NCBI GenBank assembly: GCA_030634545.1
Contig: DAOWAN010000003.1
Span: 1 to 48,754 of the forward strand
DNA: 48,754 nt
Origin: Candidatus Nanohalarchaeota archaeon
GTDB taxonomy: Archaea > EX4484-52 > B79-G9
Direction: 5' to 3'
Shown here: one piece after another, positions 11,376-44,089 of the stretch
How positions within the stretch are numbered: the stretch's first letter is position 1
Layout of the letters: each line of letters starts with the position of its first letter
Translations under genes and position numbers: made by a program
The notes under the pieces: model-generated
What the model saw: the letters and a program-made list of their open reading frames with translations, nothing else
The model's database searches: none
Told to the model about the DNA's origin: nothing

Positions 11376-11698
11376 TATAGCCAAAGACATAACTCTCCAG
11401 ACCATATGTCTTTGTCATCTGATTAACAATCTTCGAGATTTATCATTTTGAAAATTGGTACCCAATTTCCAATTTTCGAAATCACTAAAAATCCACTTCA
11501 CATAGTGGATTTTTGTGATAACAAAAATCGAGTCTCTCGATTTTTAGTTATTTGAAATGGGTGACCATTTCGAAAATCCAGCAAATCCCGGATTTGCCCG
11601 GATCCTAAAAATCACGATGTGATTTTTAAGGACACATAAATCGCGGGATGTGATTAAGTATGTTTATATTTGTCAATCCGGTAACGGCGTGAAATATA
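11376..11698. repeat. MITE-like hairpin-array element, copy 1 (about 7 modules)
   Basis: Left stem TATAG-C-CAAAGACATA..TATGTCTTTG; modules shared with copy 2; ends GTAACGGCGTGAAATATA. Confidence 0.75.
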
Positions 11699-11727
11699 GA
11701 AATATACCTCAGCTTAACTCACGCCAG

Positions 11728-12303
11728 TTATGACTCTTTCTCAAGCAGGATATCCTTAATCTGATCTTCCAGAACTATGCGATTAGTCTTTCCGTATTTT
11801 TCAGTCCGAATTATTCCTTTTATTTTTAGACTATTTACCGCCCTATGGGTTTTCAGTTTATCCATATAGTTCTCTCTTGTTATTTCAGACTGCAATACAT
11901 CTCCCTTATTCTCAATTAATTTTTTCAGTACAATCCTTTCATCAGGGTTTGAAAATCTTAAAATTGTGTTTATGTAATTTGTGTCTTTGGAACTTGTTTT
12001 TATCGTATTATCTTCATCTATTGTTTTTGAAAGCAGTTCCATTTCTTGTTTCAGTTTTGTCTCACTTATTTTTGAGATGAAATAGTATGAAACCGGAACT
12101 ATTGCAAGAATCAGGAGTACGATAGTTACCCACAAGATCCGGTTTGGTATCATGTGTTTGCATTCAGATGCCCAGGGAATATTTTTGAGTCCCTCATGAT
12201 TAAAAGCACTATAAAAAAGAATGATTAAAATGCCGGTCATTGATGTTGATGATACCAGCAAAAGCAGTTTTTCGATTTTTTTGTTCATGGTAATATTCCG
12301 CAT
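11728..12303 (-). CDS. Membrane-bound winged-HTH regulator
   Basis: Two TM helices followed by ERIVLKKL..QSEI..GII..KYGKTNRI. Confidence 0.8.
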   Translation of the reverse strand: MRNITMNKKIEKLLLLVSSTSMTGILIILFYSAFNHEGLKNIPWASECKHMIPNRILWVTIVLLILAIVPVSYYFISKISETKLKQEMELLSKTIDEDNTIKTSSKDTNYINTILRFSNPDERIVLKKLIENKGDVLQSEITRENYMDKLKTHRAVNSLKIKGIIRTEKYGKTNRIVLEDQIKDILLEKES

Positions 12304-12436
12304 TTTGAAATATATATATCATTATAAAAAACACATCACATCAACAATATGAATATTCTGATGCACAACTATAGCCACCAATTGCTGCTCTGACAGAGAC
12401 AACATCATATGTTCATGGGAGCAAAGAAAAATAAAT

Positions 12437-13465
12437 TTAATCAGAAATTGGAGTACTGCCATGAATTCTCTCAAAGTCATCTGTAAACTTATCTGCAATT
12501 TCCTTATCGTGAATTATCAGAATGTTCTCATCATTTTTGGTGTCTCCTGCTTTTGTAGGGTTAAATGAGCCTGTAACAACAATAGTTTTATCTATAATAA
12601 ATACCTTATTGTGCATATTCTTAGGATTGCTATCCCAAATCACAGGTACGTCATTCTCTAGAAGTTTTTCATATTCACACCATTTACTTTTCTGGAATTT
12701 CTCAAAAACACCGCGCACCTGTACGCCACGATTATGCGCATCAACCAGCGCATCCCCTATCCCGTCATGCGTGAATGTAAAGCACATAAAATCTATTGAG
12801 TCGGTTGCTCCTGAAATCAGTTCTATGATATGCTCTGCGCACTTGTCTTCAGGACAGAAATAATTCTCATAACGGATATCGTTAAGATAGATCACAGGAT
12901 TGCGCACTGTGTCTCCACTTCCAAATACCCTGCTTTCCAGTTCTGAAAACTCATCCTCGTAATTAGAAGAGAGGTATTTTGAATATATTACAAGCATATT
13001 GTTGTCATTTTTCATGCCGGTGATTGTAGGATTGTACGAACCCATAAATACAATCTCACTGTCTATGATGCAGAATTTATCGTGCATCAGCTGGTGCGTA
13101 CCGATATTAGATACATAATCAATCCCGTAAAGGTGTTTGGTGTTATCTTTATCTGTCACAAGTTGTACATCGATATCTTTTGCCTTTGCTTTAAGTGCAT
13201 CAACAATTCCCTCTAGTTCAACGTCATATAAAGCGCAATGGATAGATACATTCGCGCTTTCAATCAGGGTCCTTAGCCGGGTCTCGCAGCCATCCGCAGG
13301 ACAGAACAGTACTTCCGGCGCTAAATTTGTCTCACGGATATCCCCGTCGGGTAAAATCACATTGCTGACAATAGAGGTATCCTGCATGAACACAAACCCT
13401 GCAATTAAAACCAGTATGAAAAAAATATTCCACTTCTTAACTCTTCTCTTTCGCCTGCCCATCAT
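12437..13465 (-). CDS. Membrane-anchored phospholipase D-family protein (two HKD motifs), probable nuclease
   Basis: MHDKFCIID..GSYN and MHNKVFIID..GSFN; N-terminal TM helix. Confidence 0.88.
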   Translation of the reverse strand: MMGRRKRRVKKWNIFFILVLIAGFVFMQDTSIVSNVILPDGDIRETNLAPEVLFCPADGCETRLRTLIESANVSIHCALYDVELEGIVDALKAKAKDIDVQLVTDKDNTKHLYGIDYVSNIGTHQLMHDKFCIIDSEIVFMGSYNPTITGMKNDNNMLVIYSKYLSSNYEDEFSELESRVFGSGDTVRNPVIYLNDIRYENYFCPEDKCAEHIIELISGATDSIDFMCFTFTHDGIGDALVDAHNRGVQVRGVFEKFQKSKWCEYEKLLENDVPVIWDSNPKNMHNKVFIIDKTIVVTGSFNPTKAGDTKNDENILIIHDKEIADKFTDDFERIHGSTPISD

Positions 13466-14646
13466 TCTCCCTCCTTCTTTTTACTTAAACTTACTTTATG
13501 ACTTGTCTCTTCACTACTGAAAGCCTTTATCTTTTCGGCGACCCTGTTGTCAAGCAGAGTCTCTTTCATGACGCGCTTAAGAGCAAATACATCAAGACCT
13601 GATGCCTTATCCCATAATCCGGTCTTCTTTAGATAAGCTTCCAGTTCTTTTCGCTTTTCATCTCCTGCTTTAGGGTATTTTACGTCTATGCTCTCTGTGA
13701 CTTTCGCAATATAGTCATTGCTTTCAACTGCGCTCATGTGGTTCTTGGTGCAATACTCAATGAGCGCATCACGAATATCATCCAGCTCATCACTTATCGT
13801 TTTTTTGCGCAGCTTCAAAAGAGCATATTTATCGACCAGCTCAACCCCGGATCCGTAGATATCATTTTTTTTATTTTCTGCACTGAACTTATGCTTGTGT
13901 ACAGGGCATATTGCCTGATACTCGCACCACGAGCATAATTTTGATGCATTGGGAAGAAAGTCACCTTTGTCTTTTGCATCTTCAATTATTCCAATCTTTT
14001 TGATTATGCTGTTTTTGACGTCTTTTAGTTCCTTTTCAGTGCGCAGATAGCTGAATTCCTTGTTGAATGCAAGATAATGCCATATTACGCGTATGTTTTT
14101 TGCGTCAGCATACATATCCCTGACTGCAAGAGCGTACAATGATAGCTGTTCATCTCTTTTCAGGACTGCCTGTGGCGGCAGGCTTCCCGAGGTCTTGTAA
14201 TCGTGTATCTCATATATGGAGTCTTTTGCTGTAGCGAGTCTGTCTATGTAGCCTATGATAGTATGCCCGTCCAGCTTCAGATTGACTTTCTGCTCAAGGC
14301 TTACGGTTGTGCCTGATGTAAACGGGAAATTCTTCTTATAGTAATCTGCGATATATTTTCTGCCCATATCAAGATAATTTTCTTTACAATAGCCTTTCTT
14401 GATTATACGGATAGCGTCACTATACTTCTTATTCCATCTGTCCTCATAGTACGTATTCAGATTGTCTGCGCTGTTCTCTTTATGGCGCTTGAGGTCTGAG
14501 TAGAGCATCTCAAGTGTCTCATGTACGCGCTTGCCGAGAAATGCTTCGATGCCTTCAAAGCGCTCTACTTTCACTTTGTCAATATAGCGGTACCTGAACA
14601 TCAGAGGGCAGTTGAAATAAGTGTTTATCTTTGAATAAGAATACAT
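13462..14646 (-). CDS. PD-(D/E)xK nuclease (RecB/AddB/Cas4-like) with four-Cys cluster and C-terminal extension; start uncertain
   Basis: SYSKINTYFNCP, GYIDRL, IHDYKT, QLSLY and CSWCEYQAICP motifs. Confidence 0.88.
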   Translation of the reverse strand: MYSYSKINTYFNCPLMFRYRYIDKVKVERFEGIEAFLGKRVHETLEMLYSDLKRHKENSADNLNTYYEDRWNKKYSDAIRIIKKGYCKENYLDMGRKYIADYYKKNFPFTSGTTVSLEQKVNLKLDGHTIIGYIDRLATAKDSIYEIHDYKTSGSLPPQAVLKRDEQLSLYALAVRDMYADAKNIRVIWHYLAFNKEFSYLRTEKELKDVKNSIIKKIGIIEDAKDKGDFLPNASKLCSWCEYQAICPVHKHKFSAENKKNDIYGSGVELVDKYALLKLRKKTISDELDDIRDALIEYCTKNHMSAVESNDYIAKVTESIDVKYPKAGDEKRKELEAYLKKTGLWDKASGLDVFALKRVMKETLLDNRVAEKIKAFSSEETSHKVSLSKKKEGE

Positions 14647-14730
14647 GGGGTGTAATTTACGGGCAAGATTCATATTTCTTTGCCTGCAGCCAAGATATTT
14701 CTTTTCTATGCTTCTGGTAGCGAGCATACC

Positions 14731-15288
14731 CTAGAATAAAAAGAAGGATACGCCTATCAGTATAAATAATATCCCGGAAAATTTTGTAATCGCACGTTCG
14801 TCTATTCTGTCTGAGAGATATTTTCCTAAATAGATTGTCATCAATGACAATAAAGTCAATGCGGTCATGACTCCTGCAAAAACCATAAACCCGTTGTATT
14901 TTGCTGCAAACAATGCAGAAGCTATTTGCGTCTTATCTCCCCATTCAGATAAAAAAATCAGGGCAAATCCCGAATAGAATGGGGTTTTGAAATAAGAGAT
15001 ACTTTTGAGTTCTTCTTTTTTGCTTACCAGTACCAATACTCCAAAAATTATGAAAACAGCACCAGATAGGGGTTTTATTAAGCCTGCATCAAAAATAGTT
15101 GTAATCCATCCACCTGCCAGAATAGCAATCCCGTCAACCACTAAAAATGCCAGTATCACACCTGCCAATAACTCACGATGTTTTTTTGTTTTCGAGGATA
15201 AGAGTAAAATAGACAGCTGGGTTTTGTCACCCAGTTCTGCAAGACCAACTACAATCAAAGGAATCAATATCTCTTCTAACATAATCAT
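14731..15288 (-). CDS. TMEM165/GDT1 (UPF0016) cation transporter
   Basis: ELGDKTQ and EWGDKTQ signature motifs. Confidence 0.93.
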   Translation of the reverse strand: MIMLEEILIPLIVVGLAELGDKTQLSILLLSSKTKKHRELLAGVILAFLVVDGIAILAGGWITTIFDAGLIKPLSGAVFIIFGVLVLVSKKEELKSISYFKTPFYSGFALIFLSEWGDKTQIASALFAAKYNGFMVFAGVMTALTLLSLMTIYLGKYLSDRIDERAITKFSGILFILIGVSFFLF

Positions 15289-15419
15289 ACCTCACAGGAA
15301 ATTCATTGAGGATATTAATATTTGTTTGCCTGTGGTGGCTTTGTGTAAAAAGTCCCGAAAGTGTGTAAAATCGGCTATTTCAGACTTCATACACAAAGCC
15401 AGCAGATAGCAATCATACA

Positions 15420-17663
15420 TCACCCAAAACGCTTCTGCGCTTTCAACCCATCCACATCCTCCCCGACCTTCTTCTTAAGCGCTTCTGCGCTTTTCTGTCC
15501 CACTGCGCGGACAAGGTCAGCGAATGAAACATCGCGAATAGAGGTCAAATCTGTAACACCAATCTTAAAAAGGGCGCGCGCCTTCACTCTGCCAATCCCG
15601 CGGATCTTTACAAGATTTATCAACTCTGAGCGCACCCCATACTTCAGTCTTACTCTAAGTTTGTCGATAACGGGGCGCAGACTCGTTACATTGCAGATGA
15701 AAGAGATTTCTGAGACTGCGTATAAAAGCCAGTCGCAATTGTCAAGCTTTGCACGAAGTTCGCCGGGGCTCATCCGGAATCTATCCATCAGAAAATCTTC
15801 GCTTTTTTCATGTATCCATGCATCAAGCGCCATTGCGGTCTTAAATGCGCTAAGATTTGTGTCCTCATCGGCTTTGGCAAAGTCAGGGACTATCAGTTTT
15901 GCTGAGGATTTCTCTATTTCCTCGTAAATCCACTCATATTCTGCTTTTCCAATCCTTAAGCGTGGTCTCATCTCAAGTGCAGAACAGACAAGATGCATCA
16001 GACCAAGGTCTGAAGCTTTTATTGGTGCGCATTTTCGAATGGCATGTACAAAGAGCCAGGAGGTCACAGGATCAATGTATAGTTCTGCAACGCGCTTGCC
16101 TAGTACTGTTGCTTTCATCTTTTTGACGGCATGATATGAATCTGCGCTTTGGAAAAGCGACGGGCTTGATATATCTCCTTCTTCATTCCATTCTACCAGC
16201 TTATAATCGCCTAGCATGTCAACAACCTTACTTACATTACGTTCAAGTTCAAAAAGGTCATTGTACTGGAATGCATAAAATGTCTTTTCCATAAATGCCA
16301 TCAAATGTTTGTCACTATAGACGTGTCCTGTGGCTATCAGGGAAAGGATGTGCGAGCGGAGGACCGGCTCAAGCGAAAGTTTTGAAAAGATCTTCTCGCA
16401 TTCGGCATTGACATATTCATCCATTACGCGGTCAACGTCATATTCGCTTTTAGCGCATGCAAGTGCAATGCCTTTAGAATCATACTTCGGTCTGCCTGCT
16501 CTTCCTGCCATCTGCTGGAATTCAAGTACTGGAATAGGGCGCATCCCATATCCGCCCATGTATCTTGTGAGGTCTCTTACAATCACATACGCTGCAGGGA
16601 GGTTTACTCCGGCGGCAAGCGTCGGGGTGGCGCAAATTACCTTTATCTTTCCACTCTTAAAATTCTCCTCGATAATGTCTTTCTGCTTTGGCGCAAGTCC
16701 GGCATGATGGAATGCAGCGCCATCTGATACTATTCTTGAAAGCCTTCTGCACTGTTTTGTGGGATGTGCAATTGCTGAGAGAACTGAAGAAGAGACCTTA
16801 TCCATACCTTTAGAAAATTTTTTTGTTACTGCACCTGCTTTTTCAGCCTGGCTTTCGGCACTGGGTCTTGAATTTACAAATACAATCGCCTGCTTACCTG
16901 AGGAGACAATGTGCTCAATCAATGCAAGCAGACTATCTGTTCTCTTATCTACTGCCTGTGTTTTTTCTTTAAAATGCATCTTACAGCCATGATAAGCACC
17001 TACTGCAAGGTCTACGGGTCTGTAATCGGATTTCACAAGTTCTGCGGAAAGCCACCCTGCAAGTTCTTCACTATTGTTGATTGTAGCAGACAGACCGAGT
17101 ATCTGGAATTTTGTGAGGTCCCGCAGGCGGGTGATTGTGACTTCCAGTGTCGGTCCTCTTGAAACATCGTTTAAAAGATGTATCTCATCGCAGACCACCA
17201 GCCCTATATCGCGCACCCACTCTATGCCGTGCCGGATGAGGCTGTCAAGTTTTTCGCAGGTGACAATTATCACATCATATTCTGCAAGCCACATCTCTTT
17301 TGAATCGTGCCCGCCCATTGAGAGCGCTATTTTGATACCCATTCCCTCGTATTTCTCTTTGAACTCCTTATATTTTTCAGATCCAAGCGCCTTGAGGGGC
17401 ACAATATATATTGCTTTTTTCTTGAGGTTCAGTACGGTATTGATGATTGCAAGCTCGGCAATAATCGTTTTCCCGGAAGCGGTGGGGCATGCAACAACCA
17501 GGTTTTTGCTGTCAAGCAGCCCTGAATCTATTGCCTTCTTCTGCGGGGGGTTAAAGCGGGTGATGCCATCTTTTTTAAAAACAGAGACTACCTTTTCAGG
17601 AATACCTAACTTAATGACTTTTGAAACATCCATAAATTCGCTGTCGTCATGCGTAATAGTCAT
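15420..17663 (-). CDS. hel308: Hel308/Hjm Ski2-like DNA helicase
   Basis: PTASGKT, DEIH, SAT, FHHAGL, TPTLAAGVNLPA and QMAGRAGRP motifs; C-terminal HhH. Confidence 0.93.
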   Translation of the reverse strand: MTITHDDSEFMDVSKVIKLGIPEKVVSVFKKDGITRFNPPQKKAIDSGLLDSKNLVVACPTASGKTIIAELAIINTVLNLKKKAIYIVPLKALGSEKYKEFKEKYEGMGIKIALSMGGHDSKEMWLAEYDVIIVTCEKLDSLIRHGIEWVRDIGLVVCDEIHLLNDVSRGPTLEVTITRLRDLTKFQILGLSATINNSEELAGWLSAELVKSDYRPVDLAVGAYHGCKMHFKEKTQAVDKRTDSLLALIEHIVSSGKQAIVFVNSRPSAESQAEKAGAVTKKFSKGMDKVSSSVLSAIAHPTKQCRRLSRIVSDGAAFHHAGLAPKQKDIIEENFKSGKIKVICATPTLAAGVNLPAAYVIVRDLTRYMGGYGMRPIPVLEFQQMAGRAGRPKYDSKGIALACAKSEYDVDRVMDEYVNAECEKIFSKLSLEPVLRSHILSLIATGHVYSDKHLMAFMEKTFYAFQYNDLFELERNVSKVVDMLGDYKLVEWNEEGDISSPSLFQSADSYHAVKKMKATVLGKRVAELYIDPVTSWLFVHAIRKCAPIKASDLGLMHLVCSALEMRPRLRIGKAEYEWIYEEIEKSSAKLIVPDFAKADEDTNLSAFKTAMALDAWIHEKSEDFLMDRFRMSPGELRAKLDNCDWLLYAVSEISFICNVTSLRPVIDKLRVRLKYGVRSELINLVKIRGIGRVKARALFKIGVTDLTSIRDVSFADLVRAVGQKSAEALKKKVGEDVDGLKAQKRFG

Positions 17664-17787
17664 AATAGATGTTCTGCGTATTAATTTAACTTCTTTTCCC
17701 TCCCATAAACCTAGGATGATTTTTTCCCGGGCATTTTATCTTTGGGATACAATAATATTTATATAATTATCTTTACTTTGAAGTAGT

Positions 17788-18519
17788 ATGACTATAGATG
17801 CAGTAATTTTCGATATCAACGGAGTATTGGTGAAAAATTCCCGAACATACAACGAAATCTCTTTCAAAAAATATATCTCAGATAATTATAATGAAAAGAA
17901 CTTAACAGACACCATAATTGATGGATGCCGCAGGCGTCCTCTGATAGAGCAGGTAAAATGCTGGGAAAAAAAACTAAACATCTCTATTGATTATAACCAC
18001 TTCGATAAAGAGACCACAGAAATGCAGTTGGAAATGATGAGAAAAGAGAAAAAAGACCCACAACTAACCCTATTTTTAAAATATCTTCGTATCAATAATA
18101 TTCAAATTGCTGTCGCAACTTCTTCAGGAAGAGCGCGCGCAAAAAAAATTCTTCAAACTCTGGACTATTCCTACGATGTGCTTGTAACCTCGGACGATGT
18201 AGGCGATGGCAGAAGCAAACCCGAACAGGACATCTATTTGGAAGCCGTCAAAAACTTAAATTATCCGACAACTGTTATTGCTGTTGAAGATTCACCTAAA
18301 GGGATAACCTCAGCTAAAAGCGCATCACAACACTTAGAGTCCCTAGGGATAACTCTGAAAGTAATTGGCTATTATCGAAAAGACGATCCAGAACACAGAG
18401 ACATGTTAAGTGACGCGGATGCCACAATAGCTGATTTTTCCGAAATATATGCCTCTATCAACCGATTATTTGCTGAAGACATCCCGATACCTCGTGCGTT
18501 GTCTGAAGCAGTTTCCTGA
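17788..18519 (+). CDS. HAD-family hydrolase
   Basis: FDINGVL, ATSS, KPE and EDSPKG motifs. Confidence 0.85.
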   Translation: MTIDAVIFDINGVLVKNSRTYNEISFKKYISDNYNEKNLTDTIIDGCRRRPLIEQVKCWEKKLNISIDYNHFDKETTEMQLEMMRKEKKDPQLTLFLKYLRINNIQIAVATSSGRARAKKILQTLDYSYDVLVTSDDVGDGRSKPEQDIYLEAVKNLNYPTTVIAVEDSPKGITSAKSASQHLESLGITLKVIGYYRKDDPEHRDMLSDADATIADFSEIYASINRLFAEDIPIPRALSEAVS

Positions 18520-18605
18520 TTTATAATTGATATCAGAATCTTCCAAAAACGAACTCCAAAAACACATCCATAAATATTAATACACTAAAATCCAAAGAGA
18601 TACAC

Positions 18606-19187
18606 ATGACAGCGCCATACATTGTAATAGAAGGAATGGACGGGTCAGGCAAGACCACGCAGGCAAAACTGCTTATCGATTTTTTGAAAAACCATAAATT
18701 CAAGGTCTACCATAATATAGAACCTTCTACAAGCCCTATCGGAAAACACATACAAGAGATGATAAAATCATCTGCATCCCGTGCTGAGACTACTGCGCTT
18801 GCGTTCGCACTTGACCGCATGCTGTCTTATGACCAGAACCTGAAATATGCAAAAGAGAAATATGATTACATAATAGCTGACAGGTCATACCTTTCATCCC
18901 TTGCATACCAGCCACTCCAAGGCTGTCGATATGATTGGATAAAAGAGCTTAATCGCTATGTGGAAAAACCAGACATTGTATTTATCCTCGATATCCCTCC
19001 CGAAGAATTCACAAAACGCAGGGGAAAGACAAAAGTCATCTTTGAAAATGAGGAATTCCAGCGCAAACTAAGACGCTCATATCTATCTCTTAAAGAAAAA
19101 CTTCCGCTTGACATCATTATTCTTGACGGCACAAAACCCAAGTATGAGATTCATGAGCGCATCCGCGAGCTTACTGTAAAATTATAA
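18606..19187 (+). CDS. tmk: Thymidylate kinase
   Basis: IEGMDGSGKTT and DRSYLSSLAYQ motifs. Confidence 0.93.
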   Translation: MTAPYIVIEGMDGSGKTTQAKLLIDFLKNHKFKVYHNIEPSTSPIGKHIQEMIKSSASRAETTALAFALDRMLSYDQNLKYAKEKYDYIIADRSYLSSLAYQPLQGCRYDWIKELNRYVEKPDIVFILDIPPEEFTKRRGKTKVIFENEEFQRKLRRSYLSLKEKLPLDIIILDGTKPKYEIHERIRELTVKL

Positions 19188-19304
19188 TGACGATTCTTAA
19201 TAAACTGGCAATATGCGCAAAACAGAAAAGATAAAGGATTTAACTGTTATCTGGCAGAAAGACTCGTAATCTGAAATATAACCCAAAGAAATAGATGATA
19301 TTCC

Positions 19305-19494
19305 GGACCCGGGGGAGTTGGCGCAATTACTTAAATTCTGATGTGGATTAGTTCCACGGACATCACACACTCATATCCCGGGTCCATCTTTTTTTTACTT
19401 TCATCATATTGTTATATAGTGTCTATCACCCCTTTAGCGTATTATATTGTATTACTTTGTATTACCTCTTATTGTTGTACCCATATATATACTT
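19305..19494 (-). ncRNA. Tandem unit 1: promoter plus about 80-nt structured element (19305-19385)
   Basis: Stem GGACCCGGG/CCCGGGTCC; shares GTTCCACGGACAT, ATCACC, TTGTATTACTTT and TATATATACTT with unit 2. Confidence 0.5.
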
Positions 19495-19770
19495 AACTTA
19501 CCATTTCAACATCCAGTATGCATGATAGATACAAAATAAATGATAAAACGCATAGATAATACAATATTTTTAGAAATAGTGTCGTAAACGACAACCACCA
19601 CAGAATACTAACAAGATATAGACACTGAAAATCATACCCCATGATTATAGATTAAAATCAGGTAAAATATCCCTAAGAACACTGAGTAAATATTACAGAT
19701 CACGCGCTTAAGAACGAGCATACTGACATAGAATAAAAATGAAATCCAGAAGAAGAAGAGGTGATTATAC

Positions 19771-27757: not shown

Positions 27758-28157
27758 TATAGTAAAAGCCATAACTATTTTGACTGAATGGCTTTTCTAT
27801 ATGCTTAAAATTGCGATGCAATTTTAGCATCCAACAAATCAATGTGATTTGTTCGGATCATTAAAAATCGTTTTACGATGTTTATGATTGCGGAATTGCG
27901 ACCCAATTCCTAATTTCGCAATAAGCAATTCAGTATGAATTGCGAAATTTTGAAAATTTGTACCAAATTTCCAATTTTCGAAATTTGAAATGGGTGACCA
28001 TTTCGAAAATCCAGGAAATCTTTGATTTCCCCGGATAGATTGACGCCTCTAGGTTTTTTCTAGAGTTTGTCCATTTTTTATCGTATATGAAAATAAAAAA
28101 GCTTGGAATTCTCCAATTGTACATATCTTCCATGATTTAGTAACGGCGTCAACTATA
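27758..28157. repeat. MITE-like hairpin-array element, copy 2 (about 8 modules)
   Basis: Left stem TATAGT-AAAAGCCAT..ATGGCTTTT; right stem TTGACGCC..GGCGTCAA-CTATA. Confidence 0.8.
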
Positions 28158-31012: not shown

Positions 31013-31170
31013 TATAGTCAAGGCACTAATAAATTGAGTACGGTGCCTTGCCATATCATTAAAATTGCTCTGCAATTTTAGGATCCGGAAAATCAAAGAT
31101 TTTCCAGGATAGACGAAGGCATATTGGTTTTTTTGTGATGTTTGCTCATTTATTTCATGCCTTCACTATA
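31013..31170. repeat. MITE-like hairpin-array element, copy 3 (2 modules)
   Basis: Termini TATAGTCAAGGCAC and ATGCCTTCACTATA form a 12/14 inverted repeat. Confidence 0.8.
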
Positions 31171-34974: not shown

Positions 34975-35051
34975 CATATTCATATAAATCTTACAACACA
35001 ATAAAAATAGAGAAACAATAACCATTGAATCAATATTACATAAAGATGAAA

Positions 35052-35895: not shown

Positions 35896-36590
35896 TATAC
35901 TCTCCTAATATAAGCATGTCTGGGTTCGAACAGTTCACCTTCCCGCTTTAACTTTTTGATTATTTCTTCTGCATCTTCAATACCCTGTTCCTCAGCACAC
36001 ACTTTCACATCTTCTATAAGCACAGACTTATCCTCTCTTTCACCTTGCATTTCTTTAACTAGTTTACAGATGATACGCATTTTATTATTTATGGTTTTAC
36101 CTTCATCGGTATCGTAATCAATTACATCATCATCTAATATTACAAGTTCTAATTTTTCGGCAATTATTGTCGGATTTATCTTTCTTGTGTTCCTTGCGAA
36201 TTCTATATTGATTTTGCCTTCTATATGTACTAGGTTTTCTTCTTTGACAATATCTTTTTTTGAAATAAATTTCTCAGGAATTATAACATCAACATGAATG
36301 GAACGATATAGACTATTACCCCATTCAAGTATTATCCTCTGTGTAACTTCTGTTACGACATTTTTTATCTCAAAACTTGTTTTATTACCACAATCGCAAA
36401 ATGGTTTTTTCAATTTTTCAGATTCTTGTAATTCTGTTAGTTTTTTACCACATTCTTTACACTCAAATGTGACTTCTATTGCATGCTGTTCGATATTATC
36501 AATACGTGTAATCACACCATTTATTCCTACTATATCACCATTATTATGATGAGTAGATAAGAAATCATAATAATTTTCGAAGAACTTCAT
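35895..36590 (-). CDS. MCM-derived protein: OB/Zn-finger fused to the C-terminal winged helix, no AAA+ domain
   Basis: GDIVGINGVITR, FECKECG..CDCG, QRIILE and EEIIKKLKREGELFEPRHAYIRRV. Confidence 0.8.
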   Translation of the reverse strand: MKFFENYYDFLSTHHNNGDIVGINGVITRIDNIEQHAIEVTFECKECGKKLTELQESEKLKKPFCDCGNKTSFEIKNVVTEVTQRIILEWGNSLYRSIHVDVIIPEKFISKKDIVKEENLVHIEGKINIEFARNTRKINPTIIAEKLELVILDDDVIDYDTDEGKTINNKMRIICKLVKEMQGEREDKSVLIEDVKVCAEEQGIEDAEEIIKKLKREGELFEPRHAYIRRV

Positions 36591-36833
36591 GTTATTTCTT
36601 AAAAAAAGAAAATTAATAAACTTATAGTCCAAATTATGCACGCTTTTGCAAAAGATTATTTTTGTAGCGCAAGTGAAAAAAAACAATATTCTCAGCCCAC
36701 ATATTCTAATGAGTCTTTGCAGGTTGATGAAAACAATATTAACAACACATTACTATCAAACTCAGTCAACCTATAAAAAGTGATATTGTTTCTGCGTTAT
36801 ATTTTTATAGTACACCTACCAATAAATCATATT

Positions 36834-37199
36834 ATGACAGCCAATATTGTAGCGCCTAACAAATCAATATTTTCATCAAGACCAGAACCCATGTGGTTTG
36901 TTAAAATTGAAAAGATACTTGCTCACCGAGTAAAAATCAAATTCTTACAGAAAGTGCTTGTCTCTGGGAAAGAAGAAAATGATAAACTAACAATTAACAT
37001 CTTTCCGAAAGAAATAGAGGATAAAACAACTTGCAGTATAAAAGTAACAATCCATCAATATGATAATATTGTAAATAATATTGATGTGAAATATTACATT
37101 GGATACACAATCAAAGGACATTTTATTTTTGTATTATCATTTCCTGAATATTCATCTGACATATTAGAAAGTGATAGAATTGAACTTGTACCGAAATAG
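36834..37199 (+). CDS. Hypothetical protein
   Basis: AT-rich 121-aa ORF. Confidence 0.5.
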   Translation: MTANIVAPNKSIFSSRPEPMWFVKIEKILAHRVKIKFLQKVLVSGKEENDKLTINIFPKEIEDKTTCSIKVTIHQYDNIVNNIDVKYYIGYTIKGHFIFVLSFPEYSSDILESDRIELVPK

Positions 37200-37294
37200 A
37201 GTTGTTCTCAGAATTCTCCATAAATAGATTTTAATTCATCGCACATAATCCCGTTCATCTATTATTCAGATTCATACGTTACATTTATGGCGAG

Positions 37295-37376
37295 AATTTA
37301 TGTTTTTTCTTAGGGTTTTTGTTAGGGCGTCAAGCAGTCTGCGCTCTGTCAATTGGGTCTTTTGGTTGTCTTTGAA
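37295..37376. repeat. 82-bp direct repeat, orphan copy of the 3' end of the radical SAM gene
   Basis: 71/82 identical to 42498-42579 by manual alignment. Confidence 0.9.
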
Positions 37377-37380
37377 TGTG

Positions 37381-40300
37381 TTAGTGTTTTTTGTTTTTCG
37401 GGACATGCTTTTTATATTTTATTGGTTCTGCGCGGTTCTTTTTCATGAAGATTGCCCTTAAAAATATGCCTACAATTATGGCTATCAACACAATCATGAT
37501 GCTGTCTAAACCAGGGGCGTATTTTGATATTGTCGAGGCTGCAAGTCCTGTCGGTCCCATGTCTTCCTGCGCAGTACGGTCTGATGAGGTTAGCACTCTC
37601 TTTTCTTCATCTTCTTTTGTGTCGGGGATGTCATGTGCGGATATGTATTTTGGGGTTTTTGGTTCTATTTCACATGTTTGGGATTCTGCTGATTTGTTTT
37701 CTTCTGTGGCGCAAACATTGCGGTCTGTACAGGTTCGGGTCTGCCTGTTGTTTTCGCATGAGGACCATTCTGTACATGTCCAATCTTCTGTGCAGGCTGC
37801 GCTTTGTATTATTGCTGGAGCGGGGGTCCTGCTGCTTGTGCTGCTGCCGATGTTGTTGTTATCTTCTTCGGGCGGGTCCTCGCCTTGGATGCTTGCGAAT
37901 GAACCGTAATGGCTGAAGTGTGTAACATTTGCCCATACATAGTTGTCTATTACATTTACTCCGGTGTTTTCACATGCTGTCCATTCATTTAGGGTTTCGT
38001 TCAGATAGTACATCTTTAGTGTGTTTTCGTCTATCCCGGCAGCGCTTAGTTCGCTGTCATTGTAGTGCATCTTTATCATTGCCCAGTTCATATTGCCTTC
38101 AAGGTCGTCATTTACTTCTATCTGGATGAATCTATTCCAATCTGTCATTCCTGAAGGGGTTGTGTTACCGGGGTTGTTTAAGTGTTCTATCAGGTTTACT
38201 GAGGCGTTTGTTGAATCTCCTACTTTTATCTGTAAGGTCAGTTCACCTTCAGTTATGTTAATGGAACTGTCTTTTGGTATATTTACGTTTACTAAAGCCA
38301 CGTTGAATTGCTTTGATGCTTCTGCGGTCCAATTTTTACCAGAATAGTCTGTATAATTGTAGAGCAGGGTGAGGATGTAATCACCGGGTTTCAATATATT
38401 TGCTCTCCAGTTTTGAGCAAGATCAATGCTTTCACCACCGGAGATATGAACATTCTCTATCTTTGATATTATCGTTGTATGGTTCTCATATGCTACCTGC
38501 CAGAATACTGTGCCGGTGGTCTGTTTATACAGATACTCTTCAGTGTTCGTCAATTGCGCTTTTGCAATAACTTCTTCTGTCGGGCTATATTCCTGTTTAT
38601 CAATATCAAGTGAGATGTCAACCATAGGCTTTACAAGAGATATCATAAGCGGGATAGTGTCTGACCAGGAACCTTCTAATACCTCATGATTTTCACCACT
38701 ATACCAATCACCTGTCAAATACAGAGTAGCAGAATAGGTTTCTGATGTTGCGTTATCCGGCAGTCTTATACTTAGTGATATGTTTTCTGTATCTGTGAAA
38801 TAATCGGTTGGTCTATTGATTACAGAAATCCAGTCACATTCTGCTTCACTCACTACCCAGATGTTCAGATCAAAAGGATATTCCTCATAATACAGACCTT
38901 CGCCTACCAGCACGATTGTCCATAGTCCTGATTCATAATTCTCTGTCAAATAGAGGTATCCGGAAATATCACTGCCATAAGTATTCATTGATTGTTCAAC
39001 CAATGTTCCATTCCCATCGAAAATATATAATTCGAAAGTATTCAAATAGGCAAGAGAATCCAGATGCGCCTCAAACTTTAGATGTTCATCATTATTCAAT
39101 TGCTCCTGTGTTATGTTGAAATTATAGTAGCGGTATGAATTACTGAACGGTCCTAAGGTATTGTTTTTATCAATATCGGAGGCAGGGACAATGTCCAGAG
39201 GAGTTTCAACCCAGACATTGCTTTCAGTGGAGTTTAGAAGAAAATCTGAATCCAGGAAATTTGTCAGGTTTATGGTCACGTTGGTGGTTTCGTTTGGCTC
39301 TAAAGTAATCCTGGAGCTTTTTAGATTGGCAGTCATGCCAGGATACCAAATCTCACCTGAAAATTGAAGACCTGCATCATCTTCCAGGTATAAGTTCTCT
39401 GACTCAATAACCACTGTCCAATTGCCTTCTAAAGGTTCGCGTAGGTATGAGTTCTCTATACTACCTTCAAGATCTGATGCATCATATTCTTTTCCTGCCG
39501 GGTCATATACGAATAGTCTCAAGTCATTATAACTTCCGGGAGCGTAATCTCTTATCCAAAGAGATATCTTCAGATAAGGTATTTGGGGCAGCACTTCAAA
39601 GGAAAATGCTCTTCTTTCATTTGAACTACAGAAATATCCGTCAAATGATGCTATTCTGTTAGTGTATCCCATAGATGAACCAGAACCTCCAGAGGAAGGC
39701 GGTTGTGCATAATTACCCGTACCACAAATATTACTTCCAAAATACTCATGTGTCGCATATGATTTAAATTCTATTGGTTCTGAAACTATGATCGATGCAG
39801 GAATCATAACATCTTCATCAATTGAATTTAGTTTTATCTTTCCTGCATATAATCCGGATATATCTGCATCAGGTATTATTGTAAGTCCGTTTTCTGAATA
39901 ATTGAACCAGTCCCACGTTTCAGGTTTATATGTTTTCAAAGTGATTGTAACATTTACTTCTCCGGAAACACTATATGGGTAAACATACAGGCGCCAAAGA
40001 CCATCTTTGGGCTTGTAGACAAATATGCTTTCTGAGTCAATTATGCCATAAGACCCGGAATAGTGCATATTCACTGGATCATATAGAGTCATGTCAATAT
40101 CATTGGAACTATTGTTCCAATTTATGGAGATATTAAATGAGTAGGCATCGTCAGGCATATAAAAGGTGTAATTAAATCCGATTGTAGAATTTACTGTATC
40201 GTAATCTGTTATCAGATCTATGATTTGCGTACCATCTTTAATGGCAGATAAAGCAGGATCAGTTAATGTCGTATTTAGAGTGATTGTTGTCTGCCTGCCA

Positions 40301-42324
40301 TTTTGAATGATAAGATTTAACAGGGACGGTGTCGCAAGAATTTTTGACTCCTCTGCTAATTCATGAGCATCTGAAACATTGATTAAACCTGCTCCCTGAA
40401 CAAATACTCTTTCACCAAAATCTTCGGCTGTATTCATTAAAATCTCTTTTATCTCATCCGGAGTCAGGTCGGAATCTGTCTGTTTCAATAGTGCTACTGC
40501 GCCTGCGACGTGCGGGGCGGCCATACTTGTGCCGCTAGCAGAGGTATAATGCGGAGTGTATAAAATACCCATATCAGTGCTACCTGACCTTGCTGAAATT
40601 ATTGAAACACCGGGGGCAACTAATTCCGGTTTTATTCTGCCGTCTGATGTGGGACCGATACTGCTGAAAGATGCAATCTGTCCTGATTGCGCATATTTGT
40701 ATGAAGCACCAACAGTAATCACTTTTTTTGCACAGCCGGGAGTAAGGATTGTTTCATTACCCCACCAGCCATAATTTCCTGCTGCTATAACTACCACTGT
40801 ACCCATATCCCATGCTTTTTCTGCTGCCTGCGCCAAAGGATCATTTCCATCACAAATGTTTTGCCCACCACCTAAACTCATAGAGATCACATCTGCTCCA
40901 CTTAGTACAGCCCATTCTATGCCCGCTATTATCCCTGAATCATATCCATAGCCATCATCACTTAGGATCTTGCCATTCAATAGCTGAGCGCCGGGCGCTA
41001 CACCTTTAAAAATATCCGGCTGATAATCCAAATTGATATCCAATCCTATTGTCAGATTATTGTCTTCTGAATCGATTTGAGAGACAAGATATTCTGTAGA
41101 ACCCCAAGAACCATAACATACCCCCCAATAATCACATACAGAATAATATTTTTTAAAATGCTCATTCTCAAATGCTTTCATCTGGTCGAGCATTGTGTTG
41201 AAGTCCCCGTCTTCATCAAGATAAATTAAACTGTAATCGGAGGTGATTTCTACGAAACCATTTATGCCTGTGCTGAAATTAAATGTAACATTACCCCAAT
41301 CTTGTGTCCCTGTGCCAGTTATCCATGATTTCCCACCATCAATACTGAAATCGTAAATATGTGTCTCATTTCTATTAATGTCCAATGTATAATTCTCATT
41401 TTCCTGGACCATCAATACATAATCATCTGTATCGTATCCCCACCAACCGGATGGGATGTCATAATTAGATACCTTAGAATCAGGGGTTATCTTAAATATC
41501 CATTTTGTGAGAAGTACATTATACATATCAACTAATTCGACTATTCCTACATGCGGTGTCTGTTCCGGATTCGGTATGTTTGTCAAACCGCTTGTATCTG
41601 TAGAGATTGTGTCTACAAAGATTGTGGAGCCAGCACCGCTCCCGGCAATTATGCCTGCGCAGTGTGTTCCGTGCCCGTAGCCATCTGATGCGTCTAATCT
41701 GTTATCGAATAAAGTGAAATCTCTTTCTAAAATAATCTTATCTTTCAGTCCGGGATGATCTTTGTCGATTCCTGTGTCTAAAACCGCTATCTTTACCCCT
41801 GTACCATCAATGCCATTGTCCCAGACAAATGGTGCGCCAATCGCTTTTGTGCTTTCACTGAGAAGAGGAGTGAATTTTCCTTTTTCTCTCAATTCCTGCA
41901 TTTCCTGTTCAAAGCCTTCATCCGGTTTTGGTATCTGTACTTTTTTGTCTAAATAGATTCCTTTAATGTTGGTATCTGAAGCTATGTTTTGGATGTTTTC
42001 GTGAGGGATGTCCAGGGCGATTGCGCCTATCAGTTCATAGATGTATTTTATCTTTGCATTATTCTGGTTTAAAAAATTGATGACTTCGTCCTTGTGTTTG
42101 ATGTCAGTTAAAGTAACTATCACCGGTACGTCTATTGGTGTCGGTTGACTCAATTGAGTATTTAGGGTGGATACTGCGGTCTGCGGTTGTTGTGATGTTT
42201 TTTCAGATATTTCCTGTAAATGTTCTACAAGAGCAGGGCCAATTATTGTTGGCTCTGAGTGTACTGAATTTGCGAGAAGCATTAAAAAGAACACACATGA
42301 CCAGATTAGAGTTAACTTTTTCAT
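37381..42324 (-). CDS. Large membrane-anchored S8 subtilase
   Basis: Signal peptide and propeptide; VLDTG, HGTHCAG and GTSMAAPH motifs; CTEDWTCTEWSSC motif; C-terminal TM helix. Confidence 0.93.
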   Translation of the reverse strand: MKKLTLIWSCVFFLMLLANSVHSEPTIIGPALVEHLQEISEKTSQQPQTAVSTLNTQLSQPTPIDVPVIVTLTDIKHKDEVINFLNQNNAKIKYIYELIGAIALDIPHENIQNIASDTNIKGIYLDKKVQIPKPDEGFEQEMQELREKGKFTPLLSESTKAIGAPFVWDNGIDGTGVKIAVLDTGIDKDHPGLKDKIILERDFTLFDNRLDASDGYGHGTHCAGIIAGSGAGSTIFVDTISTDTSGLTNIPNPEQTPHVGIVELVDMYNVLLTKWIFKITPDSKVSNYDIPSGWWGYDTDDYVLMVQENENYTLDINRNETHIYDFSIDGGKSWITGTGTQDWGNVTFNFSTGINGFVEITSDYSLIYLDEDGDFNTMLDQMKAFENEHFKKYYSVCDYWGVCYGSWGSTEYLVSQIDSEDNNLTIGLDINLDYQPDIFKGVAPGAQLLNGKILSDDGYGYDSGIIAGIEWAVLSGADVISMSLGGGQNICDGNDPLAQAAEKAWDMGTVVVIAAGNYGWWGNETILTPGCAKKVITVGASYKYAQSGQIASFSSIGPTSDGRIKPELVAPGVSIISARSGSTDMGILYTPHYTSASGTSMAAPHVAGAVALLKQTDSDLTPDEIKEILMNTAEDFGERVFVQGAGLINVSDAHELAEESKILATPSLLNLIIQNGRQTTITLNTTLTDPALSAIKDGTQIIDLITDYDTVNSTIGFNYTFYMPDDAYSFNISINWNNSSNDIDMTLYDPVNMHYSGSYGIIDSESIFVYKPKDGLWRLYVYPYSVSGEVNVTITLKTYKPETWDWFNYSENGLTIIPDADISGLYAGKIKLNSIDEDVMIPASIIVSEPIEFKSYATHEYFGSNICGTGNYAQPPSSGGSGSSMGYTNRIASFDGYFCSSNERRAFSFEVLPQIPYLKISLWIRDYAPGSYNDLRLFVYDPAGKEYDASDLEGSIENSYLREPLEGNWTVVIESENLYLEDDAGLQFSGEIWYPGMTANLKSSRITLEPNETTNVTINLTNFLDSDFLLNSTESNVWVETPLDIVPASDIDKNNTLGPFSNSYRYYNFNITQEQLNNDEHLKFEAHLDSLAYLNTFELYIFDGNGTLVEQSMNTYGSDISGYLYLTENYESGLWTIVLVGEGLYYEEYPFDLNIWVVSEAECDWISVINRPTDYFTDTENISLSIRLPDNATSETYSATLYLTGDWYSGENHEVLEGSWSDTIPLMISLVKPMVDISLDIDKQEYSPTEEVIAKAQLTNTEEYLYKQTTGTVFWQVAYENHTTIISKIENVHISGGESIDLAQNWRANILKPGDYILTLLYNYTDYSGKNWTAEASKQFNVALVNVNIPKDSSINITEGELTLQIKVGDSTNASVNLIEHLNNPGNTTPSGMTDWNRFIQIEVNDDLEGNMNWAMIKMHYNDSELSAAGIDENTLKMYYLNETLNEWTACENTGVNVIDNYVWANVTHFSHYGSFASIQGEDPPEEDNNNIGSSTSSRTPAPAIIQSAACTEDWTCTEWSSCENNRQTRTCTDRNVCATEENKSAESQTCEIEPKTPKYISAHDIPDTKEDEEKRVLTSSDRTAQEDMGPTGLAASTISKYAPGLDSIMIVLIAIIVGIFLRAIFMKKNRAEPIKYKKHVPKNKKH

Positions 42325-42495
42325 TGAATTACCACCTTAAATATATAATTTAGTGGAAGAATGGTTAACACACACCTTTATATATGTTACTCTTTGTGAA
42401 TGATTAAAATAGATTTTAGGTTTTTTGTGTATGGCTATAATTCAGGTGAGTTATCTTTGAATCGATTACTTAGAATCCTGCTTATATCCCACTGG

Positions 42496-43818
42496 TTAAT
42501 TTGTGTTTTTTCTTAGGGTTTTTATTAGGGCGTCAAGTAATCTGCGCTCGGTGAGTGGGGATTTTGGGTTGTCTTTGAAGTCTTTGTATGTGTTTTTGTC
42601 CAGACAGGAGATGAGAGGGAGGTTTTGTTTTTTGCATGCGTTTTTTAGGGCAGTGTAGCTTTCTGAATCGGGTTTGAAGTATGCGAAGAGCTTTTCGTAT
42701 CTGTGGGATTTCAGGTAGTTTTCGATTCTATCTTGTGTTGTTTTTAGGTATTGTTTTTTTATCTCGGGGGTCTCTTCCCATTCGGGCCAGTCGTAGTGGG
42801 CGAAGGGGTATTTGGTCTCGAATTCGCGGGGGATTATGCCTGGATTTGAGATCATGAGATGGTGGAGGTTTGCGTAGGCGGACAGGGATTTTAGGCGCCT
42901 CGTGATTTCTTTGTGAGTTTTTGAGTATGAGTAGGGTTTGCGGTATGCGCAGGGGAGGAAGAGAGCGTATTTTTTTATTTCGGGTTTTTCGTAGAAGCGC
43001 ACTATGTAGTCCTGCCAGAGGTCGTAGATTGGGTTTTCAAGGTTTTCTTTTGTCGCGCCGATCAGAGGGGTCTGGTCTTTGAAGCGTGGGTATGAGATGT
43101 AGTCGTCATAGTAGATGTCGATTTTTTTGTCTGCGCGGTGCTTTTTTACGAGGGTGTTGAATTCGCTTTTGTTTAGTGGGCGCCATGTTTTTTTCAGCCA
43201 TAGATTGAAGAGTGGGGCGTAGCCGTATGGGTAGGTGTTTATGATTGCGATTGTGTCTGAGTGTTTTTGCGCGAATTCTACGGAGTCGTCGAGGGAGCTT
43301 TGGATGTCTTTTGTGTATGGGAGGTTTGCCATGAGGTATGTCCGTATGTAGAAGCCTTGTTTTTTCAGGAGGGATGCGGCGTTTTGGTAGTCTTTTGTTG
43401 TGAAGCCTTTGCAGATTTTTTTTAGTATGCTGTTGTCGGATGTTTCGAGTCCGAGTGCGAAGTATATTTTTAGTCTGTTGTTTTTGTTTGCGTCTTTTAG
43501 GATTTTTAGGTTTTGGGGGGTTATGTGGTCCGGGCGGCTTTCGATTATTAGTTGTTTTATGTCTAAGTCGATGCATTTTTGGATGAGGTATTTTTGGAAG
43601 TCTTCAGGGATTTGGTTTTTGTCCAGGAATGAGCCGGAGTTCAGGTATTTTAGGGTGTGGTAGGTTTTGGTCAGTCTTGCGTCCAGCTGGTGCTTTAGGC
43701 GGTTGAAGTCAGGCTCTGGGAGGTCGGGTTTTTTGCTGAAGCTGCAGAAGATACAGCGCGCCCATGAGCAGCGACCTGATTCGGTTATGATGGTCAGTTC
43801 TGTTTTGTCTGTCGGCAT
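42496..43818 (-). CDS. Radical SAM (RaSEA-like) fused to an ArcS/DUF5591-like domain; putative archaeosine synthesis protein
   Basis: CSWARCIFC, NSGSFLD, IESRP and GLET in the N-terminal part; LFLPCAYRKPYSYSKTH and YPFAHYD in the C-terminal part. Confidence 0.75.
   Translation of the reverse strand: MPTDKTELTIITESGRCSWARCIFCSFSKKPDLPEPDFNRLKHQLDARLTKTYHTLKYLNSGSFLDKNQIPEDFQKYLIQKCIDLDIKQLIIESRPDHITPQNLKILKDANKNNRLKIYFALGLETSDNSILKKICKGFTTKDYQNAASLLKKQGFYIRTYLMANLPYTKDIQSSLDDSVEFAQKHSDTIAIINTYPYGYAPLFNLWLKKTWRPLNKSEFNTLVKKHRADKKIDIYYDDYISYPRFKDQTPLIGATKENLENPIYDLWQDYIVRFYEKPEIKKYALFLPCAYRKPYSYSKTHKEITRRLKSLSAYANLHHLMISNPGIIPREFETKYPFAHYDWPEWEETPEIKKQYLKTTQDRIENYLKSHRYEKLFAYFKPDSESYTALKNACKKQNLPLISCLDKNTYKDFKDNPKSPLTERRLLDALIKTLRKNTN
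42498..42579. repeat. 82-bp direct repeat, in-gene copy
   Basis: Matches 37295-37376. Confidence 0.9.
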
Positions 43819-43886
43819 GGGTATCACTAACAGTTCTATAATGAGGATAGAAATATAAATTGTGGGGTGTTTTGTTTTTGGTTTAG

Positions 43887-43919
43887 TATACCAGTTGGCA
43901 TATATACCATACGGTATAT
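43887..43919. promoter_or_regulatory. Degenerate copy of the tandem TATACCA-NN-TGGTATA palindrome
   Basis: TATACCAGTTGGCATATATACCATACGGTATAT. Confidence 0.55.
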
Positions 43920-43932
43920 CTCGTGTTTTGTT

Positions 43933-44089
43933 TATAGTAAAAGCCATAACTATTTGGACTGATGGCTTTTCCATATCCTTAAAATTGCTATGCAATTTTA
44001 GGATCCAGGAAATCTTCGATTTCCCCGGATAGATTAACGCCTATTGTTTTATTGGTTCTATTTGTCCAGTTATTATCGGCGTTAACTAT
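43933..44089. repeat. MITE-like hairpin-array element, copy 4 (2 modules)
   Basis: Left arm nearly identical to copy 2; right stem TTAACGCC..GGCGTTAA-CTAT. Confidence 0.8.

Follow-up and report, generated by a model that had tools for sequence, protein, structure and literature searches.

Four intergenic elements in the genome of a Candidatus Nanohalarchaeota archaeon have ends of the form TATAG(T/C)...(A)CTATA and carry different numbers of hairpins in between. What kind of DNA are they, and how do the hairpins come to be there? The elements lie on a complete contig of 48,754 nucleotides (DAOWAN010000003.1 of assembly GCA_030634545.1), which we call the window; the metagenome-assembled genome (MAG) that it belongs to has 2.18 Mb in 180 contigs and 39% G+C. 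A first-pass annotation of the window had described a mobile shell with two arms that accumulates and reshuffles hairpin cassettes. We found the four elements again where it had placed them (E1 to E4, by position; Table 1). We propose, with a probability of roughly 60%, that they belong to a lineage-specific family of non-coding selfish DNA that is organized in nested tiers. Below, G000 is the window's own MAG, C-numbers are its contigs (the window is C143), and L-numbers are loci that were fetched from other MAGs. L and R are the left and right arms of the shell, and A to H and J are hairpin modules.

The elements are members of a multi-copy family. Comparing E1-E4 to G000 with BLAST gave 311 high-scoring segment pairs, which merged to 100 loci (several of them at contig ends). 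When we searched G000 with profiles of the arms (44 nt for L and 59 nt for R), we found 170 arms (75 L and 95 R), which form 69 L-R pairs and leave 32 arms unpaired. Members are non-coding and 103-430 bp long. The simplest ones, of 103 bp, consist of TATAGT, a stem with a 16-nt loop, CCATAT, then AGAT, a stem with a 33-nt loop, and ACTATA. Each end of the shell thus has a subterminal hairpin that folds by itself. The terminal inverted repeats are TATAGT plus 7-8 partly matching nucleotides at each end.

The interior of the element, between the arms, grows by pairs of hairpins. Among the 69 L-R pairs in G000, the interior has 0-5 nt in 37 cases, 52-60 nt in 16, 112-121 nt in eight, and 170-184 nt in four; the others have 234, 289, 307, and 314 nt. 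In the other MAGs (67 loci with 54 pairs), it has 0-6 nt in 33 cases, 52-61 nt in 11, 109-122 nt in eight, and 171-176 nt in two. The growth step is a hairpin pair of about 55-60 nt. Automatic tiling of 32 interiors from G000 gave two hairpins for 16 of them, four for eight, six for four, and eight for one, which makes 29 of the 32 even. Among the filled interiors of the relatives, 17 of 18 tiled as an even number, and the sole odd one (L036) is an artefact of the arm boundary that comes from an insert in the loop of the L arm.

The first-pass annotation had the modules freely reordered, but we found a strict grammar in which pairs are nested, L[A[C[EF]D]B]R, and some units are repeated in tandem. 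Interiors with two hairpins have A and then B, without exception. Four hairpins come as A[C1 D1]B, A[C2 D2]B, or A B A B, and six come as A[C1[E F]D1]B, A[C2[G H]D2]B, or A B A[C2 D2]B. In the largest array (C53:1609-2020), the order is A B A[C1[E F]D1][C2[G H]D2]B. In annotation with profiles, most matches to E+F lie between the halves of C1+D1. Matches to G+H follow the first half of C2+D2, or else they come last in the annotated array or on the contig. Each tier was observed solely within the tier above it. So, instead of two tiers with reshuffling of single cassettes, as first proposed, the unit of change is the hairpin pair, and there are at least four tiers (the shell, A+B, C+D, and E+F or G+H).

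The modules are joined through a shared AT, as had been noticed in the window: AT is found within 3 nt of 82 of the 95 internal hairpin boundaries. The unfilled junction of the shell reads CCAT-AT-AGAT and the filled junction reads CCAT-AT-unit-AT-AGAT. The same rule holds for C+D within A+B and for G+H within C2+D2; E+F has AC at its left. The ends of the units are AT-CC..GG-AT, ATTG.., TTTG.., and similar, with no GTAG or CGTC tag. The median pairwise identity rises with depth (0.72-0.77 for the arms, 0.77-0.78 for A+B, 0.83-0.90 for C+D, 0.93 for E+F, and 0.88 for G+H), which would fit a later arrival of the inner tiers, but this comparison is biased, as the profiles for the inner tiers were built from one to three seeds.

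The A+B unit can be present or absent in the same shell. Two MAGs carry orthologous shells, L036 and L038, whose flanks and arms are ~90-95% identical, and these shells differ by exactly one 54-nt A+B unit, so cargo is gained or lost in place, as had been supposed. The orthologous shells L019 and L011 provide a second, less clean difference in cargo. Also, C106 and C150 share a site that comes from two co-assembled strains. The left flank is identical for 65 nt and the arms are ~80% alike; one strain has a cargo of six modules there, and the other has two modules as well as an insert within the loop of its L arm. (Some contigs from Logan had joints on E3 or E4 that skip 54 nt, with a 2-nt overlap, but these contigs are short and multi-copy and could not be assigned, so we dropped them as allelic evidence.)

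Cargo and shell also have separate histories. Across 18 elements with two modules (153 pairs of elements), the identity of the L arms is coupled to that of the R arms (rho = 0.68), which defines subfamilies. The identity of the interiors has rho of 0.14 and 0.18 with that of the arms. Three of the pairs have identical 54-nt interiors, and for two of these, the arms are 73-80% alike; in the converse cases, arms that are at least 93% and 98% alike enclose interiors that are 80% alike. The identity of A+B ends within ~6 nt of the unit on either side. The orientation of the unit is fixed: all 54 full-length matches are on the strand of the nearest arm. Of 104 matches to A+B, 65 are between two arms, 32 are within 450 bp of one arm, and seven have no detected arm. 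Four of these seven are in the arrays of E1 (whose arms are below the threshold) and of C178, and the others are on C59 and C155. Thus, we found no A+B unit away from shells among the 104 matches, although the matches on C59 and C155 were not inspected.

The shell is mobile, and it duplicates TA upon insertion, as its ends had led the first-pass annotation to expect. To find empty sites, we compared the flanks of loci from G000 and from other MAGs. (Searching with both flanks inside G000 alone gave no empty site; this succeeded once the loci from other MAGs were added.) We obtained three clean pairs of filled and empty sites. L061 is filled (...CGC TA TAGTT...ACTA TA AACGG...) and C169 is empty (...CGC TA AACGG...); L023 is filled and C99 is empty; and L036 and L038 are filled while the site in C31 of G000 is empty and reads TG. 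A fourth pair (L051 filled, C97 empty) agrees but is poorly aligned. Movement has been recent. Among the 29 empty shells in G000 with complete arms, 3 of the 406 pairs are 100% identical but have unrelated flanks, and 5 of the 406 are at least 98% identical. Since the median identity is 0.74, the family is old and diverse, yet it has recently moved.

Shells lie exclusively between genes. Of 50 complete L-R pairs, 26 are between tandem genes, 10 are between divergent genes, 10 are between convergent genes, and four are at contig edges (the background is 713 tandem, 275 divergent, and 177 convergent), and their orientation relative to the genes is unbiased (12 the same and 14 opposite). The spacer that is orthologous to the location of E3 lacks any element in four of five congeners, and in the fifth it contains, elsewhere in the spacer, an empty shell that belongs to a different subfamily; these spacers have diverged so far that no exact empty site can be defined.

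The stems of the arms are kept by covariation. Pairing holds in 587 of 599 stem cells of the L arms (60 distinct sequences), versus 429 ± 8 if columns are shuffled, and in 659 of 698 of the R arms (70 distinct sequences), versus 526 ± 7, so the compensatory changes that were reported from the four copies are real. One position in the L stem is AT in 19 sequences, TA in 15, GC in 13, and CG in 13, or Watson-Crick in 60 of 60. The elements of the window fold strongly as single-stranded DNA relative to shuffled sequences (z = -6.0 for E4, -9.2 for E2, and -11.7 for E1), with 0 shuffles that are as good.

How might such a family be built? Tier 0, the shell, is a MITE (miniature inverted-repeat transposable element) of 99-101 bp plus the duplicated TA, with short inverted ends (TAGTnnAnGnC...), that inserts at intergenic TA. 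The TA duplication points to movement of the IS630/Tc1 (Tc1-mariner) type, so an IS630-family transposase may act on the shell in trans. The junction between the shell's hairpins (CCAT-AT-AGAT) would receive an A+B unit of 52-54 nt, in one orientation and with AT at both sides. The A+B junction would in turn receive C+D, and the C+D junction would receive E+F or G+H, with tandem units possible. Stepwise insertion of pairs would yield arrays that are bracket-like and have even numbers of hairpins. The TA rule does not hold for the inner units, which may be moved by a different activity that is specific for a site or a structure.

It is possible, but we would not bet on it, that every tier is a mobile element in its own right and a parasite of the one that encloses it. 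In the same tentative reading, a structure-guided recombinase that is not of the DDE type would insert the twin hairpins, in one orientation, at the foot between two hairpins, with strand exchange at the AT dinucleotide. This enzyme might be a conserved cellular one, as most of these tiny genomes show no transposase. If so, this would be an undescribed mode of transposition in which the shape of the DNA defines the target.

The first-pass annotation had suggested looking for an IS630 or HUH transposase that is flanked by these sequences, and we did not find one. G000 does contain one IS630-family insertion sequence (IS), which is single-copy and apparently intact (C139:2820-3940; 1120 bp). It encodes a 346-amino-acid DDE_3 transposase and has TA flanks and imperfect inverted ends of ~30 bp, which read TA|TAGCAATCC... 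Its relatives in the genome G006 and on a metagenome contig (L078) have the same ends as the IS. By eye, these ends resembled module D1, but BLAST gave no support for this. Y1_Tnp is present in 3 of the 16 genomes of the family, all from the window's genus, and the Y1_Tnp genes of G000 (on C145 and C164) are flanked by GC-rich hairpins that are unlike any module. We did not find TnpB in G000. An IS110-type gene, a weak match to resolvases, and several IS4-type genes of G000 were considered and rejected, as neither ends like those of the shell nor any of the modules accompany them; the IS4-like gene next to the C59 array is bounded by unrelated ends of its own. Finally, the 18 proteins that are encoded between neighboring copies belong mostly to housekeeping families or have no match; they include one toxin-antitoxin pair and no recurrent nuclease or recombinase.

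Several observations weigh against our proposal. Neither G000, nor the 67 loci from other MAGs, nor the relatives of the resident IS630-like transposase yielded an autonomous element whose ends resemble those of the shell. The IS on C139 has TA|TAG alone in common with the ends of the shell, and BLAST with it finds no copy of the shell. DDE_3 is present in just 3 of the 16 genomes of the window's family, all from the window's genus, although the shell is in all three genera; these MAGs are 59-91% complete, so the absence of a transposase from them is weak evidence. Arms that fold by themselves and covary are not required for DDE transposition, and they resemble the ends of single-strand (HUH) transposons. 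Also, in 61 of 80 copies, the nucleotide at position -3 from the left TA is A, and the right side shows nothing corresponding; such an asymmetry is not expected, as a TA target is palindromic. Given the arms and the asymmetric flanks, the shell might instead move by a single-strand mechanism that recognises hairpins. The TA on each side might alternatively represent a target and the terminus of the element itself, as in an IS200/IS605-style insertion 3' of a fixed tetra- or pentanucleotide, without duplication. As for the interior, the three longest ones in G000 tile as 9, 11, and 11 hairpins. (By profile annotation, one of these has 10 hairpins; the remaining two take in a piece of an R arm whose loop bears an insertion.) The variants of A and of B combine in many ways, which indicates that recombination also acts on the arrays. 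The two orthologues L036 and L038 do not settle whether A+B was gained or lost. And all of the data is from short-read MAG contigs, with many arrays at contig ends.

Alternatively, the inner units might not be transposable at all, and might spread between shells by gene conversion or by template switching at stalled hairpins. We consider this rather unlikely. The conserved junctions of the upper tier would serve as flanking homology, so each unit would be confined to its host tier, and this would account for the strict context dependence of the units. The fixed orientation of A+B, the lack of a cognate enzyme in our searches, the mixed combinations of A and B variants, a C module on contig C91 that is a chimaera of C1 and C2, and the resemblance of E1 to a deletion between two copies of B are also in its favor. 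However, identity stops sharply at the edges of the units, and identical units adjoin stems that differ. The common junction of ~6 nt per side is too short for ordinary homologous recombination. Copying by homology would also leave unexplained how each type of unit first arose at a hairpin junction. In another alternative, the series of interiors would run from long to short: a long ancestor (L A B A C E F D C G H D B R) would have been trimmed by precise internal deletions, with empty shells as the end products. Nested subsets are what central deletions would give, and E1 shows that deletions occur. The short form of the Correia element of Neisseria is an internal deletion of the long form. 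Sizes of ~104 to 157 bp are tabulated for these elements (PMC3184786). But slippage at hairpins should often drop a single hairpin, and the counts are nearly always even, in both G000 and its relatives. Identical A+B units in diverged shells are also difficult to reconcile with trimming, as are the greater uniformity of the inner tiers (with the bias from few seeds mentioned above) and the empty shells, which are the commonest form and include the youngest copies. We view trimming as improbable.

It is more doubtful still that a function for the host maintains the arrays, for instance as structured RNA, as terminators or stabilisers of transcripts, or as sites for nucleoid- or topoisomerase-type proteins, as has been proposed for bacterial interspersed mosaic elements (BIMEs). 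The strong covariation that maintains the stems, the folding z-scores of -6 to -12, and the exclusively intergenic locations would be expected if so. However, the symmetry of a palindrome can persist through correction at the DNA level, without selection on RNA. The elements show no bias in orientation relative to genes and no favored class of intergenic region, four of the five congeners lack any element in the spacer of E3, and the cargo at a single site varies between strains. Rfam has no matches at the gathering score across the whole window. We therefore prefer nested tiers of selfish DNA over these alternatives.

Correia/IS630-type ends and the mosaics of repetitive extragenic palindromes (REPs) and BIMEs had been named as analogues, and this is the right neighborhood. 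Correia elements are described as one long hairpin, whereas the arms here fold separately. Otherwise the Correia/NEMIS elements (CREE) of Neisseria have much in common with the shell: TATAG-type ends, TA duplication, intergenic locations, many copies, and no identified cognate transposase. As tabulated in PMC3184786, they also have size classes that are ~50 bp apart (~104 to 157 bp, versus 103 and 157 bp here). In contrast to Correia elements, the host here is an archaeon, and the extra 54 nt are a discrete twin-hairpin unit that has its own history and has more tiers nested inside it.

The closest precedent for the cargo is the GTAG-15 family of Anabaena variabilis, in which, according to the section on it in Di Nocera et al. 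(2013; PMC3733652), REP dimers sit within TATAGGA...TCCTATA palindromes. There too, a pair of small palindromes is central to a longer palindrome with TATAG/CTATA ends. That section reports that the target palindrome without an insert was not found apart from the REPs, which parallels the context dependence here. Unlike our elements, that family is bacterial, has the GTAG tag, and is linked to Y1 transposases of the RAYT (REP-associated tyrosine transposase) type; here, there is no GTAG or CGTC tag, the majority of the shells are empty, and there are at least three levels of nesting. In REPINs and BIMEs, what replicates is a pair of palindromes rather than a single one (Bertels and Rainey 2011; PMC3116915), and the units here are also doublets, of 20-40 nt each; the same paper states that REPINs can insert into or beside REPINs. 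But a REPIN, as described there, has two inverted REPs in one hairpin and is tied to a RAYT gene that is flanked by REPs, while our two hairpins differ in sequence and no Y1 (RAYT) gene is flanked by the same palindromes. The BOX elements of Streptococcus pneumoniae (boxA-boxB(n)-boxC; 67-637 bp as listed in PMC3184786) have constant ends and variable internal modules as well, but these are tandem copies of one module rather than nested pairs of different modules. In 2008, Elhai and colleagues reportedly described very small mobile repeats that insert into other repeats in heterocyst-forming cyanobacteria, as single units of ~24 bp.

The outer layer is ordinary, as it is a MITE that duplicates TA. 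The interior is unusual: it consists of hairpin pairs with fixed orientation, hierarchical nesting, independent histories, and no known mover. As the first-pass annotation had it, no such system seems to have been described in archaea: our literature searches found nothing on nested twin-hairpin units in them, with the supplementary MITE catalogues of PMC11602168 not covered. That census of prokaryotic MITEs does report high densities of MITEs in some DPANN genomes. DPANN genomes are very small, and yet these ones have around a hundred selfish copies each, which themselves host further selfish elements. The rules that the units obey (pairs only, one orientation, and a single exact landing point per tier) are out of the ordinary for small repeats and point to a very specific insertion activity, which could be of interest as a tool for site-specific insertion. 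In practice, the family breaks short-read assemblies, as the arrays often fall at contig ends; the arrays are also sharp markers for telling related strains apart; and copies that bracket genes by chance can mislead interpretations of gene clusters.

The family appears to be lineage-specific. An exact-pattern scan of 185,579 species genomes gave 60 loci, all in archaeal MAGs, and most of these MAGs are labelled as Ca. Nanohalarchaeota. A pattern scan did not find the family in viral contigs, nor did BLAST find it in phage and plasmid records. When we compared E4 to the genomes of the order (E ≤ 1e-5), it matched 14 of 42 genomes, including G000. In the window's own family, it matched 11 of the 15 other genomes, including all seven congeners, with 13 to 24 matches each, and the shell is present in all three genera. 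In the other families of the order, it matched 1 of 1 genome and 1 of 10 genomes in two of them and 0 of 15 across the remaining five.

The species-genome scan also gave hits on MAGs with other labels: four contigs from a Methanosarcinales MAG (L015, L019, L028, and L048), one from Bathyarchaeota (L031), and one from Aenigmatarchaeota (L025). L019 has a flank with an orthologue in a MAG that is labelled as Nanohalarchaeota (contig of L011). This suggests that the shells under other phylum labels reflect mis-binning more than transfer. In another genus of the window's family, 72 nt (G012:C88:2418-2489) are 100% identical to the left arm and module A of E4, which is unexpectedly close across genera and may be due to transfer between co-resident archaea or to a binning error. 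In a self-comparison of G000 by BLAST, there are kilobase-long pairs of contigs with 77-95% identity (such as C16/C17, C150/C106, and C10/C125). Given these pairs, the size of G000 (2.18 Mb, versus 0.9-1.6 Mb in relatives), and its contamination of 7.4%, G000 seems to be a mixture of two related strains or species.

Within the window, the original estimate of about 7, 8, 2, and 2 hairpins agrees with our parsing of E2, E3, and E4, but in E1 we parse nine between the L arm and the distal part of the R arm. The eight hairpins of E2, which reads A B A[C1 D1][C2 D2]B, come with an extra 62-bp foreign insert inside its R arm. E3 and E4 are each a shell with a single A+B unit. The right arm of E1 had been described as decayed, but 11578-11675 aligns at ~88% with the modules inserted into the R-arm loop, and with the distal R arm, of the copy on C49. 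E1 therefore has an R arm with an insertion in its loop, and the proximal half of this arm is missing. E1 reads A[C2[G H]D2]B, then B, A', and J (which are R-loop modules in other copies), and then the distal R arm. This structure is best explained by a deletion between two copies of B, with loss of the proximal R arm.

Table 1. Arms, modules, and inserts of the four elements, in window positions.
Element	Feature	Positions	Strand	Basis or remark
E1	Left arm: TATAGC, hairpin with 10-bp stem, divergent junction TCATCT	11376..11420	+	Under profile threshold; by eye and fold
E1	Module A, decayed short A variant	11421..11446	+	Weak hairpin in fold
E1	Module C2, opener of tier-2 unit	11447..11482	+	CD2 profile positions 1-37, E 6e-8
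E1	Modules G+H, twin hairpin of tier 3, enclosed by C2 and D2	11483..11551	+	GH profile E 4e-11; fold
E1	Module D2, closer of tier-2 unit	11552..11577	+	CD2 profile positions 23-60
E1	Modules B, A', J (set from R-arm loop of copy C49)	11578..11662	+	~88% local alignment to C49
E1	Right arm, distal half, ends AAATATA; without proximal half	11663..11698	+	Sequence; C49 alignment
E2	Left arm	27758..27802	+	L profile E 1.5e-8
E2	First A+B unit (tier 1)	27803..27858	+	AB profile positions 1-54, E 7e-11
E2	Second A, opens second tier-1 unit	27859..27888	+	Hairpin tiling, fold
E2	C1+D1 unit (tier 2)	27889..27948	+	CD1 profile E 4e-17
E2	C2+D2 unit (tier 2, tandem to C1+D1)	27949..28010	+	CD2 profile E 5e-20
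E2	B, closes second tier-1 unit	28011..28036	+	AB profile positions 26-54
E2	Right arm, proximal part	28037..28076	+	R profile positions 1-40
E2	62-bp insert of another small repeat family in R-arm loop	28077..28138	+	Copies elsewhere in G000
E2	Right arm, distal part, ends ACTATA	28139..28157	+	
E3	Left arm	31013..31056	+	L profile E 2e-9
E3	A+B unit	31057..31110	+	AB profile E 5.5e-14
E3	Right arm	31111..31170	+	R profile E 1.3e-12
E4	Left arm	43933..43976	+	L profile E 2.6e-12
E4	A+B unit	43977..44030	+	AB profile E 2.6e-16
E4	Right arm, end reads ACTATG	44031..44089	+	R profile E 2.8e-12

The repeat in the R-arm loop of E2 (...AAGCTTGG..CCATGATTT) has other copies in G000 at C10:17189-17235, C12:1077-1123, and C178:1164-1210. 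Related inserts are found in the L-arm loops of C150, L036, and L038; their inner stems vary between orthologues, but the pairing is kept.

The genes around E1-E4 are ordinary archaeal ones, including those for the small subunit of PolD, a Hel308-type helicase, a rhomboid protease, and a major facilitator superfamily transporter. For a radical-SAM/DUF5591 gene (42496-43995, - strand), the longest open reading frame begins at a TTG within E4 (43933-43995). The true start probably lies further downstream, so the overlap with E4 is probably an artefact of how open reading frames were listed. Elsewhere in G000 (C127:14436-15669), two inverted shells bracket a nucleotidyltransferase-HEPN pair of the toxin-antitoxin type, in a layout like that of a composite transposon.

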